Below, piece after piece: positions 9,034-38,710 of a DNA stretch of 64,000 bases. The stretch spans positions 110,792-174,791 of the forward strand of contig JBKDXR010000058.1 in assembly GCA_046306055.1 (NCBI GenBank). Reading direction: 5' to 3'. Under the pieces are notes generated by a model that saw nothing but the letters and a program-made list of their open reading frames with translations, had not been told where the DNA came from and made no database searches. The position numbers and the translations under genes are program-made. Position 1 is the stretch's first letter. Each line of letters opens with the position of its first letter. This DNA is from Flavobacteriales bacterium. Lineage in GTDB: Bacteria; Bacteroidota; Bacteroidia; Flavobacteriales_F; PHOS-HE28.

Positions 9034-10799
9034 CCATCCGTTTTCCCTTGGTCCTGGCCCTGATGCTGTGGACCATGCTCTCCTTCGCACAGGGAACGCG
9101 CACCATCGACGGTCGCACCTACACGGTGCATCGTGTGGAGGCGGGCCAAACGCTTTACGCCATAGCACGTTCTTACGCTGTTCCGGTGGATGCGCTTCTG
9201 GCCGCCAATCCTACTGCAAGCGCCGGTCTGGCCATCGGGCAGGAACTACTTGTACCCAGGGATGCGGTGGTGAAGAAGGAGGTGAAGGCCGCGCCCACCA
9301 TGGCCAAGGACGGCGAACTGGTGCATACGGTGGCGAAGAAGGAGACCCTGTTCGGGATCGCCCGCAACTATGGTATGGACGTGAACGTGTTGTTGGAGCG
9401 CAACCCCGATGCCCAGGCCGGATTGCGTGAAGGAATGACCATTGTGGTGCCCGTGGCGGGCAAGGTGCAGGGTCAGCCTGATGTTGTTACCCGGCCCGCC
9501 GTGCCAGAGACCGTTGTGGAGCACACGGTGAAACAGGGCGAGACCCTGTACGCGCTGGGTCAATTGTATGGCGTGGCACCAGAGGCCATTCAGAAAGCGA
9601 ATGGTGGATTACCCGAAGGGTTGAAGGCGGGAGCCGCAGTGCGTATTCCGTTGCCCCCCGGCGCCAAGGCTCCGGAGGTGCCTGTGGCCACAGTGCCGAA
9701 AGCCAGCGATCGGGTCACGGTGGCCTATCTGCTTCCCTTTGCCTTGACGCGTAATGACAGCGTGCTGGCCGTGCCTTCCGATGAACCACGGTTCTATGAG
9801 GCCACGCGCATTGCCACGCAGTTCTGGGCCGGCGCACGTATCGCATTGGATTCCCTGCAACGCCTTGGCGTCAACGCCGAGGTGCGGGTGGTGGACATGG
9901 GTGACGATGCCCGCACATGGAACGCGGCCCTGAAAAAGCCTGAACTGAGCGGCGCTGACCTGTTCATCGGGCCCTTCCATCGGACGGCCATTGAACAGCT
10001 GGCCCGCACCACCAGTGTGCCCATCGTGTGCCCGGTCCCACAAAGCAACAAGGTGATCCTTGGTCACCCCACGGTGAGCAAGGTGACCCCCACCCGAAGC
10101 GATCTGGTCCGGCACAGTGGCCGATTCGTGGGAACGCGATTCGCTCGCGAGAACATCATCTTGTTGAGCCCCGACCTTTCAGCGGAGAAGGAGATGCAAG
10201 AGCAGATGGCCAGGGCCGTGCGCGATGCCCTCGCGGGTCAGTCGGCCCGGTTGCGGGACAGTGCCGTTGTGGCCAAGCCCGGTCGTCGTGAACTGGGTGA
10301 CCTGGTATCCAAGCTGGATGTTAATCGCCTGAACGTGCTGTTGGCCCCTGGTGAGGACGTGGAATACGTGACCACCCTGGTCAGCAAGCTGAAACCGCTG
10401 GCCACCAAGTACAAGATCATGCTCGTGGGGCTGGAGTCGTGGCAGACCATGGAGACCGTTGCCACCACCGACCTGGAACTGCTGGGCTTCCATTTCGCTG
10501 CGGCCTCTTTCGCCGATCCGGACGATGCCTCACTGCAGGCCTTCACACGCACCTTCCGCGAGCGCTATCACAATGATGTGGACGAGTATGCCCTGCTCGG
10601 GTTCGATGTGACCATGGCCTATGTGAAGGCACTGAGCGAAGTTGGTGCTGTTGGGCTCATGGAACGCATGAGCAATGCTGGAAAGACCCCGCTCCACATG
10701 GGCTTTCGCATGACGCGGACAGGCCCTGAGAACGGCTACCGGAACGAGTACGCCGTGATGTTGAAGCAGGAGGACCTGCGCCTCGTCAGGGCAAGGTAG
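9030..10799 (+). CDS. LysM-repeat protein fused to a periplasmic-binding-protein-like domain
   Basis: ATG overlaps the guaA stop (ATGA). Signal peptide [21 protein letters not shown]. Three LysM repeats ([18 protein letters not shown]..., [20 protein letters not shown]..., [19 protein letters not shown]...), followed by a type-I PBP-like region. Confidence 0.8.
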
Positions 10800-30497: not shown

Positions 30498-31925
30498 TCA
30501 GAAGTACAGCTGTACCACGAATACCGCCGTGATCACGCACACCAGGTCGGCCAGCAGCATGATGGCCAGCGTGTAGCGGCTGTCCTTCACGTTCACGCTG
30601 CCAAAGTAGAGCGCCACCACGTAGAAGGTGGTCTCGGCCGCACCCTGGAACAGGCAGCTCAACTGGCCGGTGATGCTGTCGGGACCATAGGTCTTCATGG
30701 CATCGAGCATGAATCCGCGTGAGCCGCCGGCGCTGAACGGACGCATCAAGGCGACAGGGATGGCATCGATCACTTCCTTGCTCACGCCCACCTGCGCCAT
30801 TGCCCAGCTCAGGCCGTCCATCACAATGCCCATCAGCCCGCTGTTGCGGAAAATGCTCAAGGCCGCCAGCATGGCCAGCATGTAGGGCAGCACGCGCAGT
30901 CCGGTAGTGAAGCCGTCCTTGGCCCCATGCACGAAGCTGTCGAACAGGTTGGTGCCCTTGGCCGTGAAGTATTTCTCCACCAGGAAGGCATAGCCCACGA
31001 TCAGCCCGATGATGGTGAGCAGCATGCCGTTGCTCAGGTTATCGGTGAAGTGGAACTTGGCCACGCCCGTAAGCCCGCCGATGTAGGCCATCAGCCCGCC
31101 GATCACGCCACTGATGCCCAGCACGGTGAGCATCACCGGCCAGTTGAAGAGGTTGATGCGCTGCTTGCCCGCCACCATGAACAGCGCCGCGAGCGTACCC
31201 GCGAAGCTGGTGATGATGGTGGGGATCATGATGTCCGCCGGATTGGCCGCCCCCTGTGCCGCACGGTAACCGATGATGCTGGTGGGCAGCAGGGTAAGGC
31301 CCGCGGCATGCAGGCACAGGAACATGATCTGGCTGTTGGTGGCGCGGTCCTTCTGCGGATTGTCCTCCTGCATGCTCTCCATGGCCTTCAGGCCGAAGGG
31401 CGTGGCCGCACTATCCAGGCCCAGGAAGTTGGCCGCGAAGTTCAGCGTCATGAAGCCGTAGGCCGGGTGGTCCTTCCGCAGTTCGGGGAACACGCGGTGG
31501 AAGACCGGTGATAGCACCCGTGCCACCTTTTCCATGGCCCGGGAGTCGATCAGCAGGTTCAGCAGGCCGCAGAAGAAGGTGAGGTAGCCGATCAGCGGCA
31601 GCCACAGGTCGGTGATGGTGTTGCGGCAGGTGGCGAAGAGGCCGTCCGCAGGCTGTTTGCCCACCGTGGTCCTCACCACTCCGGTGTTGGTCAAGGTGTA
31701 CAGCGTGTCGCCGCGTTGTATGCCCGCTTCACCGGCCACGCGGAGATCGCTCAGGAACAAGGTGCCTTGGTACGCCGCACTATCGCGCTCGGCCACCACC
31801 AAGGCCTCGCCCTGTTTGCCATTCACCAACATGCCCAGGGAATACTGCCGCCCGGTGCCCAGCATCACCAGCACGTAGCCGATGCTGAGTATCAGCATGA
31901 AGGTCCAGAACCGACTGAGGGCCAT
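30498..31925 (-). CDS. Nucleoside-recognition (Gate) domain membrane protein, SpmA/SpmB-like fusion
   Basis: 475 aa. Two Gate/nucleoside-transporter-like halves, 10-12 TM helices. Confidence 0.65.
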   Translation of the reverse strand: MALSRFWTFMLILSIGYVLVMLGTGRQYSLGMLVNGKQGEALVVAERDSAAYQGTLFLSDLRVAGEAGIQRGDTLYTLTNTGVVRTTVGKQPADGLFATCRNTITDLWLPLIGYLTFFCGLLNLLIDSRAMEKVARVLSPVFHRVFPELRKDHPAYGFMTLNFAANFLGLDSAATPFGLKAMESMQEDNPQKDRATNSQIMFLCLHAAGLTLLPTSIIGYRAAQGAANPADIMIPTIITSFAGTLAALFMVAGKQRINLFNWPVMLTVLGISGVIGGLMAYIGGLTGVAKFHFTDNLSNGMLLTIIGLIVGYAFLVEKYFTAKGTNLFDSFVHGAKDGFTTGLRVLPYMLAMLAALSIFRNSGLMGIVMDGLSWAMAQVGVSKEVIDAIPVALMRPFSAGGSRGFMLDAMKTYGPDSITGQLSCLFQGAAETTFYVVALYFGSVNVKDSRYTLAIMLLADLVCVITAVFVVQLYF

Positions 31926-37306: not shown

Positions 37307-38134
37307 ATGAAGCCCGTGCCCGCCCTGTTCGCTGTTCTTCTGGTGGCCTGTTCCGAGACGCCTGCACCCGAGCAGGCGCTGGTCCCTGCAGCTGGCCACA
37401 CCTTGCGCGATGACCTGGCCCACCTCTTCGCCGACCGCCAGTTGCAAGGCTCCTTTATCGGCTACGACGCCCAGCAGGAGCACTGGTCCTTCATCGACAG
37501 TGCCAGCTGCGATGTGGCCACTCTTCCGGCCAGTACCTTCAAGATCATCGGCAGCCTCCTCGGGCTGGAGAGCGGCGTATTGCCCGATACCGGCCACGTG
37601 ATCAAGTGGGATGGGCAGGACTACGGCCGCGCTGCCGCCAACCGCGACCTCAGCTTGCGCCAGGCCTACGATGTGAGCGCCTACTGGTACTTCCGCGATG
37701 TGGTGCGCCGTATCGGTCCGGCAGGCTTCAAGCAATGGCTCGATACCGTGGGCTATGGCAATGCCGACACCACCGGCGGTTTCGACCAGTGCTGGGTACG
37801 GGGAGGGCTGCGCATCACCCCGCGCCAGCAGATCGAATTCCTGCGCAAGCTTCACGCCGAGGAACTGCCCTTCAGTGCCCGCACCTTCGCCCTCACTAAG
37901 GACATCATGGTGCGCGAGGACACCCTTGGTCACGTGTTGCGCGCCAAGACCGGTTGGGCCCAGGGCGATGAAGGAAGCATCGGCTGGTACGTGGGCTGGG
38001 CCGAAGCGCCGGGCCGGGCGCCCTACTTCTTCGCCACCCGCATTTCCACCAGCGATACCGCCCACGCCTCCTTTGGCAACGATCGCATCGCCATCACCAG
38101 GTCGGTGCTGCGCGAAGCGGGGGTGTGGCCTTAG
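37307..38134 (+). CDS. Class D (OXA-type) beta-lactamase
   Basis: Signal peptide. Active-site S-T-F-K (LPASTFKIIGSL), S-x-V (DVSAYW), Y-G-N (TVGYGNADT) and K-T-G (LRAKTGWAQG) elements in canonical order and spacing. Confidence 0.85.
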   Translation: MKPVPALFAVLLVACSETPAPEQALVPAAGHTLRDDLAHLFADRQLQGSFIGYDAQQEHWSFIDSASCDVATLPASTFKIIGSLLGLESGVLPDTGHVIKWDGQDYGRAAANRDLSLRQAYDVSAYWYFRDVVRRIGPAGFKQWLDTVGYGNADTTGGFDQCWVRGGLRITPRQQIEFLRKLHAEELPFSARTFALTKDIMVREDTLGHVLRAKTGWAQGDEGSIGWYVGWAEAPGRAPYFFATRISTSDTAHASFGNDRIAITRSVLREAGVWP

Positions 38135-38296
38135 AGCCTGTTTGGGATCTCCGCATTTGGCTCCGCTATGGTCTTTGGCGACCATACTTCGTTGCGGAAG
38201 CCGTCACGTAGCTTCGGCTATGCTCCGGTTCCGCGCCTCGTCTGGTCGCCAGATCCTCATCGCTCGCTTCAAAAGGAGAGATCCCAAACAGGCTCT
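38133..38296. mobile_element. MITE-like element: 19-bp perfect terminal inverted repeats (AGAGCCTGTTTGGGATCTC) flanking a ~125-nt structured core
   Basis: The left arm starts 1 nt inside the bla stop codon (38133-38151). The right arm is at 38278-38296 and is the exact reverse complement; the match extends to ~24 bp with 2 mismatches. The core contains nested palindromes (GGCGACCA/TGGTCGCC; GCGGAAGCCG/CGGTTCCGC). Confidence 0.35.
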
Positions 38297-38710
38297 TAGG
38301 AGATGCCCGGCGTCTTAAACTTCCGCAACAGGTCCAGGAAACCCAGCACCACCAACGCCACGGCGGCGCCAAGGAGCGTATCGTACAGCCTGCCGCTCAT
38401 GGTGCTCGCAGATTCCGGCTCCTGGCCGAAGGTGGCCAGCGTCTGGGCCCATGGGCGTTCCGATGGCCAATGCCGCTCGCAGTCCGGCACCCCAGCGCCA
38501 TTCACCTTGTTGCAGGCGCATGGCGTGGTGTACCGTGCGTCGGGTGCGGGGTATGCGCAAGCGGGGTCGCATGGGGGCGCGAAGTTGGGGTGCGTGGCCG
38601 CTTGGGTCCGTCGATCATCGCCCCCGTTCGGACGATAAGGGCGGCCTTACTGCCGAAGTTCACGAACAACGCCACCCGGCCCCCGTAACCACCACCAAAC
38701 CCCTGCACCC

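Follow-up and report, generated by a model that had tools for sequence, protein, structure and literature searches.

A palindromic element at the stop codon of a class D beta-lactamase-like gene in Flavobacteriales: a very probable IS5/IS1031-type MITE with dispersed relatives

A 64,000-nucleotide stretch of contig JBKDXR010000058.1 (Flavobacteriales bacterium, GenBank assembly GCA_046306055.1, positions 110,792 to 174,791 of the forward strand; hereafter the window) carries a perfect inverted repeat fused to the stop codon of a class D beta-lactamase-like gene (bla), and the question raised by this locus is what the repeat and the sequence between its arms represent. [quoted passage not shown] Comparison with related loci, given below as L numbers, indicates that the element is very probably a MITE, a non-autonomous derivative or mimic of an IS1031-type insertion sequence (IS) of the IS5 family. 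The parts of the element and the gene it adjoins are as follows.

38134..38295, no strand assigned: probable MITE, GAGCC...GGCTC, 162 bp, non-coding; minor subfamily with L039 642-823 and L079 5731-5880; absent at the orthologous loci L044-L050
38134..38151, + strand: left terminal inverted repeat, GAGCCTGTTTGGGATCTC, presumed transposase binding site
38152..38277, no strand assigned: core, 126 nt; imperfectly palindromic, it prolongs the stem of the repeats as far as a central CGTAG...CTA(Y)G loop region, as seen from folding and from family-wide pairing
38278..38295, - strand: right terminal inverted repeat, perfect complement of the left repeat
38131..38133, no strand assigned: left TTA of the target-site duplication; the bla stop codon TAG (38132-38134) is made up of its TA and the element's first G
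38296..38298, no strand assigned: right TTA of the target-site duplication; read on the - strand, it serves as TAA stop for the open reading frame (ORF) left over from a convergent FUSC_2 gene
37307..38134, + strand: class D beta-lactamase-like gene, 275 aa, intact, of the same length as orthologues without the element

The anatomy of the element was largely as first described. A 19-nt perfect inverted repeat (AGAGCCTGTTTGGGATCTC / GAGATCCCAAACAGGCTCT, at 38133-38151 and 38278-38296) brackets the 126-nt core, and shuffled versions of the window give an expectation of 0.01 matches to the 19-mer at up to three mismatches. The other near-match, at 9343 with three mismatches, has no partner arm and lies within a 629-aa ORF of LysM-like translation; it is taken as a chance occurrence. 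The left arm does overlap the stop codon of the bla ORF, and scanning of the 64 kb with the 19-mer revealed no second copy of the element. The outer limits of the arms, in turn, had to be redrawn: the repeat itself is real, but its outermost A and T belong to the TTA duplication and the element proper runs from 38134 to 38295, with 18 perfect nt inside these boundaries (19 if the A/T of the duplication is counted) and with complementarity of the ends reaching 31 nt at 87%. Folding of a 181-nt region containing the element gave one long hairpin, whose free energy is -91.8 kcal/mol for the + strand (z = -7.4) and -95.1 kcal/mol for the - strand (z = -9.5), none of 200 shuffles being as stable; in this hairpin the core continues the stem of the terminal repeats from end to end. 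The ORFs that touch the 162 bp are long spurious read-throughs, and none is confined to the element.

Outside the window the repeat is widely dispersed. Searched in one genome per species, the exact 19-mer was found on 40 contigs, 34 of them from 22 high-GC Flavobacteriales/Bacteroidota metagenome-assembled genomes (MAGs), many from activated sludge; up to five contigs were found per MAG, set beside the single copy in the 64-kb window. Of the remaining contigs, three are from a Dyella MAG, one from another gammaproteobacterial MAG and one from each of two Clostridia-type MAGs. A 21-mer (GAGCCTGTTTGGGATCTCCGC) had no match in a first metagenome scan, and the 18-mer used afterwards was found on 34 metagenome contigs. 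The second arm lies about 143 nt away in most loci, giving elements of 160-162 bp in both orientations, and 42 distinct insertion sites were counted, a locus seen in two assemblies being entered once. Single-arm loci (L002, L032, L033 and others) have no transposase beside the arm and are mostly truncated or contig-end copies. Cores are 75-100% identical among most copies. The window copy belongs with L039 and L079 to the minor subfamily, which can be aligned to the main type and shares its length and conserved central CGTAG. The L039 copy differs from that of the window by one substitution and a 20-nt insertion, is flanked by TAA on both sides and occupies an unrelated site; such near-identity at an unrelated site points to recent movement.

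With the element bounded as GAGCC...GGCTC, identical 3-nt flanks were observed at 28 of the 42 sites, all of them TNA (TTA 14, TAA 10, TCA 2, TGA 2), with agreement of the middle base of TNA at 38 of 42. The window copy has TTA as its duplication. The flanks, followed outward from each end of the element, give the consensus T-W-A-G-R, from which a target of roughly YC-TNA-GR can be deduced. The dispersed copies with target-site duplications that the MITE reading called for were thus found.

The bla locus itself provides the corresponding empty sites. Contigs from three samples that encode an identical Bla protein also carry an identical element, and the element is absent from L048 (Bla 85% identical to that of the window), from L049 and L050 (84%), and from L044-L046 and L047 (80% in each case). 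In all of these bla is present, the orthologues at 80-85% identity likewise being 275 aa, and at L047 the insertion site is intact: it reads CCTTAGGA, and the longer reading, GTGTGGCCTTAGGAC, is what remains of the window sequence once the element and one TTA are taken out. A gene convergent with bla, 332-350 aa long, is present in L044-L046 and L048-L050 and overlaps the bla stop by 4 nt; a FUSC_2 match was obtained for it in L044-L046 and L049. Most relatives without the element keep the order OmpA, DUF3575, TPR, methyltransferase, bla, FUSC_2 and a 169-aa gene, which indicates that bla has long been part of the chromosome and that the element arrived later. A terminator or stabiliser peculiar to bla, formed at the gene's end and never mobile, would fit a very stable hairpin lying directly after a stop codon, with one copy in the window; its probability is nevertheless negligible, given the absence of the element from this locus in the closest available relatives, the near-identical copy in L039 together with family members at 40 further sites, the flanking TTA duplication, and the lack of a U-tract.

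The protein encoded by bla stays below the curated NF012161 cutoff of 250 bits, with a score of 202.7; it matches PF00905 and contains STFK, YGN and KTG motifs in its translation. More than 2000 homologues were found at E <1e-40, and every organism named among the matches listed belongs to the Flavobacteriales. The window bla thus looks like a member of a clade-wide chromosomal OXA-like lineage of putative activity.

Elements that share these ends and encode a transposase were identified elsewhere. L076 contains, at 114-1032, a 919-bp IS (TTA-GAGCCTGTTTGGGATCTCC...GGATCCTGAACAGGCTC-TAA) whose left end is identical to the window left repeat at 18 of 18 positions. Its orfA matches DUF4096 (59.5 bits), and its orfB, which lies in the +1 frame across an A8 run, matches DDE_Tnp_1 (PF01609; 94.7 bits) and NF033580 transpos_IS5_3 (139.6 bits against a cutoff of 110); the transposase has thousands of relatives. 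L085-L090 contain elements of 918-919 bp, with transposases 86-89% identical to that of L076, and related elements are present in L091-L093. The left end of the L085-L090 elements, GAGCCTGTTTGGAATCTC, agrees with the window left repeat at 17 of 18 positions and is identical to the left end of many MITE copies, and all of these elements, like that of L076, encode DUF4096 and DDE_Tnp_1 proteins. TAA is found on both sides of the IS in L088, L090 and L091. The ISs of L085 and L091 adjoin genes with a Por_Secre_tail domain, which is known as specific to Bacteroidota. When orfA and orfB were compared by tblastn with the window and the 84 loci then collected, only L076 matched; the window is therefore without a transposase of the L076 kind, in agreement with the original prediction, in which no transposase was seen nearby.

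The ends and target preference of these elements point to a described group. The IS1031 subgroup of IS5 is characterized by a preference for TNA, an exclusive 3-bp repeat and an orfA/orfB arrangement (PMC12016507). ISLrh, a member of this subgroup, is 857 bp in length, compared with 919 bp for the L076 IS, has orfA and orfB, and ends in the repeat GAACCTGTCTAGTATCT, to which the window repeat is identical at 13 of 17 positions (PMC12016507). TNA targets, 3-bp duplications and a repeat beginning with GAG are hallmarks of the IS1031 subgroup. The present family combines the TNA target and 3-bp duplication with a probable IS5-family transposase partner and with ends common to autonomous ISs.

Several points weigh against this interpretation. 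Neither a transposase nor a second copy of the element lies within the 64-kb window. Identical flanks are lacking at 14 of the 42 MITE sites, as is expected of old copies but is still a departure, and the L076 IS itself lies between TTA and TAA, flanks that do not form a clean duplication. Only ends of about 20 nt are common to IS and MITE, with no relation between the MITE core and the interior of the IS, and capture of the repeats, rather than internal deletion of an IS, may have given rise to the element. Finally, mobility is deduced here from comparison of sequences.

Variants of the element were also encountered. The 33-nt remnant AGAGCCTGTTTGGGATCTCTTCAAACAGGCTCT at L003 6697-6729 consists of the element's two ends, almost fused, and may be the footprint of an internal deletion or of imprecise excision. 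Elements with the same terminal repeat and an unrelated core occur at L036 6491-6647 (157 bp, with TGA/TGA flanks), L015 4492-4757 (266 bp), L032 and L002; their hosts are the Dyella MAG and another gammaproteobacterial MAG, and their subterminal CTCCGCGT resembles CTCCGCAT of the window subfamily. The same repeats on unrelated cores in gammaproteobacterial MAGs suggest that the same IS ends serve MITEs in two phyla. Short palindromic insertions of 14-30 nt are nested in the stem or loop of some copies (L039 ~745-764, L031 1628-1641, L037 2200-2213, L025/L029 and L007/L019). An identical 14-nt palindrome, CCGCCGTACGGCGG, is found at different positions in two MITE copies from different MAGs, and beyond those two copies this 14-mer was not found in the window or in the loci collected by then.

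From the anatomy, the dispersed family, the duplications, the empty sites and the matching ISs, all directly observed, a course of events at the bla locus can be proposed for the probable MITE. A DDE transposase, made elsewhere by an IS of about 919 bp with the same ends, would act in trans on the 18-19-nt repeats of the element and insert it at T-N-A, preferably in the context YC-TNA-GR, with duplication of three bases. The locus before insertion read ...TGG CCT TAG GAG..., with the TAG of bla on the + strand and the TAA of FUSC_2 on the - strand overlapping on TTA. The element entered this TTA in the lineage of the window and duplicated it. Because TTA is duplicated, and because G is the first base of the element and C its last, bla retains its TAG and the minus-strand gene its TAA: the left junction places G after TTA to give TAG, the right junction places C before TTA to give TAA on the - strand, and neither coding sequence is altered. 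The insertion would have been tolerated because both stops were rebuilt and the coding sequences left unchanged, and it appears to have been near-neutral.

This placement at a stop codon is a habit of the family. The stop of a flanking ORF of at least 100 codons overlaps the duplication at 20 of 42 sites, as compared with 86 of the 508 CTNAG sites taken from these loci as controls (17%; p = 1.3e-5). Both flanks end in overlapping stops at 5 of 42 sites and at 2 of 508 controls (p = 4e-5), so that convergent-gene junctions are about 30-fold over-represented among the insertion sites. The bias is sufficiently explained by a TNA target that contains or generates TAA, TAG or TGA, together with loss of insertions that disrupt genes.

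A very different origin was suggested by the position of the element, namely that it is an attC-like or other site-specific recombination site, or an inverton, which marks bla as a cassette or switches its expression. Like attC sites, the element is an imperfect palindrome of comparable size lying directly 3' of a resistance-type gene, with conserved ends and a core that varies between subfamilies. This reading is very improbable. The element ends in GAGCCTGTTTGGG / CCCAAACAGGCTC and has no RYYYAAC, the sole candidate for the other core site, GTTTGGG, having T where GTTRRRY needs R, so that unlike attC it has neither R'' nor R' site. No integrase or invertase match was obtained among the surrounding ORFs scanned, and there is no cassette array. 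Bla stands in conserved synteny in relatives without the element, and the family is dispersed over 42 unrelated sites at which TNA is duplicated, a trace that recombination sites do not leave; furthermore, its ends equal those of an IS with a DDE transposase. The opposite orientations of L025 and L029, considered as a sign of inversion, proved to be one locus read on opposite strands. The proposal that the element mobilises bla is likewise rejected, with one copy present, on one side only, and the same gene order in relatives that lack it.

If the element is very probably a MITE by origin, its hairpin could still have acquired a function. A consensus fold over 27 aligned copies contains 42 pairs spanning the whole element, with 95% of cells paired, and pair-keeping changes on both sides are present at 18 of the 42 pairs. 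None of 500 shuffles reached the observed pairing values, and sliding the partner on the 3' side by 1-3 columns lowered pairing to 34-50%. Covarying pairs and both controls argue that the foldback is maintained and not merely inherited, with DNA-level selection (for synapsis or transposition of so short an element), arm-to-arm correction and an RNA role as candidate causes. As the first 162 nt downstream of bla, the element would, if transcribed, form a hairpin of about -90 kcal/mol, and an effect on 3' end formation or stability of bla mRNA is possible by analogy with Correia elements (RNase III) or ERIC (RNase E).

It can accordingly be asked whether the MITE has been exapted, its hairpin being selected as a bidirectional transcript-end module (terminator, insulator, 3' stabiliser or RNase target) that shapes the 3' end of bla mRNA. 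The compensated pairing across the 27 copies speaks in favor of this idea, as do the common length and fold of the window and main subfamilies in spite of their different sequences, the enrichment of sites between two converging ORF ends, and the precedent of Correia and ERIC elements, which alter transcript processing or stability from such positions (PMC10969869). Compensatory changes may also stem from arm-to-arm correction of the palindrome or from requirements of transposition, and gene-end enrichment is expected from the TNA target and purifying selection alone. No terminator-like site was found in 38131-38300, the stem being followed by TTAGGAGATG and not by a U-tract. Orientation relative to the upstream gene is unbiased (12 against 14, by hand tally), an excess of G-U over A-C (52 against 20), considered as a sign of strand-specific RNA folding, is biased by structure prediction itself and so not decisive, and relatives do well without the element at the bla locus. 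A sigma-70 scan of the element found nothing, and the Bacteroidetes-type -7 motif TAnnTTTG does not occur on either strand in 38101-38330; the absent orientation bias, U-tract and promoter motifs argue against a strand-specific RNA role. Exaptation of the MITE at bla is therefore regarded as unlikely. A broader proposal, speculative and quite unlikely, makes the whole family a gene-end module, distributed by transposition and indifferent to orientation, by which colliding convergent transcripts would be kept apart in these Flavobacteriales; the bla/FUSC_2 junction would be one case of it.

Further searches yielded nothing that would alter this interpretation of the element as a probable MITE. 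An Rfam scan of 37800-38700, at E up to 10, gave weak irrelevant matches only, none in the element, and a 34-nt element end compared with PLSDB by BLAST gave 18-19-nt chance matches in helicase genes and no IS. Among viral contigs (IMG/VR; L097-L125) 29 matches were obtained, all of them single arms without partner or transposase; they represent four contexts, in phage contigs of 40-54% G+C, and were rejected as chance-level. Twenty-four of the 29 are one conserved locus in related phage contigs (42-54% G+C), in which the 18-mer GAGCCTGTTTGGAATCTC is preceded by TAA; its occurrence there is probably coincidental.

The gene on the other side of the element has fared differently from bla, and its remains are arranged as follows.

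38296..38572, - strand: FUSC_2 remnant, convergent with bla, lacking about 773 bp by internal deletion; its C-terminal piece is the 69-aa ORF at 38296-38505

Mapped against L049, window 38310-38449 corresponds to L049 908-1047, and window 38446 onward to L049 1820 onward. FUSC_2 is thus a pseudogene in the window, consisting of the 69-aa C-terminal ORF and an out-of-frame N-terminal piece. The edge of the deletion lies about 150 bp from the MITE, and a causal link is not evident. In L047 (3829-6828) a 188-aa ORF and an MmeI-type restriction-modification gene stand downstream of bla in place of FUSC_2, which indicates that the region just 3' of bla is a variable spot in the clade. Elsewhere in the window, another perfect 19-nt inverted repeat (TCAACTGGCCGGTGATGCT / AGCATCACCGGCCAGTTGA) occurs at 30659-30677 and 31129-31147, 451 nt apart. 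It lies wholly within a gene for a 475-aa membrane protein (30498-31925, - strand), in which it encodes NWPVML and SITGQL; the chance expectation for such a repeat is estimated at about 1e-4 per 64 kb.

In summary, the element very probably belongs to a well-known kind, the IS5-derived MITE, and such MITEs have already been described in Bacteroidota, in P. gingivalis. A false lead is removed, in that the repeat beside a class D beta-lactamase-like gene is neither an integron site nor a mobilisation signal, and bla is a chromosomal gene conserved in a high-GC Flavobacteriales clade that is uncultured and occurs mostly in activated sludge. For that clade an undescribed MITE family and its probable IS5/IS1031-type partner are documented, which should be of use for annotation and for explaining contig breaks in MAGs. 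The locus is also a clean example of a TNA-targeting element that inserts exactly on overlapping stop codons and rebuilds both, and the conserved full-length hairpin and gene-end bias are of modest interest for studies of MITE domestication. Stop-codon regeneration, the full-length foldback and the PIF/Tourist-like ends are neat details that will not surprise a specialist.

Among the closest known systems, the IS1031 subgroup (ISLrh, IS1031), taken together with MITEs derived from IS5-family elements, shares with the present family the TNA target, the 3-bp duplication, the GAG start and, in the partner IS of about 0.9 kb, orfA, orfB and DDE_Tnp_1. Unlike the ISs of that subgroup, the present element is a non-coding 162-bp derivative with a core unrelated to the IS interior, and the orfB of its partner lies in the +1 frame across A8, whereas ISLrh is described with a -1 shift. 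The IS5-related MITEs of P. gingivalis (BrickBuilt, MITE239, MITE464/PgRS and MITE700) are also found in Bacteroidota, and they too have a GAG-starting repeat as their sole similarity to resident IS5-family elements, with no transposase remnant inside (PMC4596501). Their repeat sequences differ from that of the present family (GAGACCTTTGCA against GAGCCTGTTTGG), and BrickBuilt contains a minisatellite and has irregular target-site duplications, in contrast to the compact full-length palindrome and regular TNA duplications seen here.

Correia elements of Neisseria and ERIC of enterobacteria and Yersinia are, like the present element, hairpin MITEs of 100-160 bp at gene boundaries; they are co-transcribed with their neighbours and have documented RNase III or RNase E effects on host mRNA (PMC10969869). 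They would offer the best functional analogy for an element in a 3' untranslated region. Unlike the present element, they are not derived from IS1031. Correia and ERIC duplicate TA.

Plant Tourist-like MITEs and PIF/Harbinger elements share with the present family the TTA/TAA 3-bp duplication and a G(N)5GTT motif in the repeat (PMC2213677). The repeat of MtPH-E, GGGCCTGTTTGRAAC, matches GAGCCTGTTTGGGAT at 12 of the first 13 bases, and the PIF/Harbinger transposase is related to that of bacterial IS5 (PMC2213677). PIF/Harbinger is, unlike the present family, a eukaryotic superfamily with a second ORF, and the likeness is one of deep homology of the transposition system, not of membership. It is striking how far IS1031-type ISs and eukaryotic PIF/Tourist elements have kept their end sequence and target in common.

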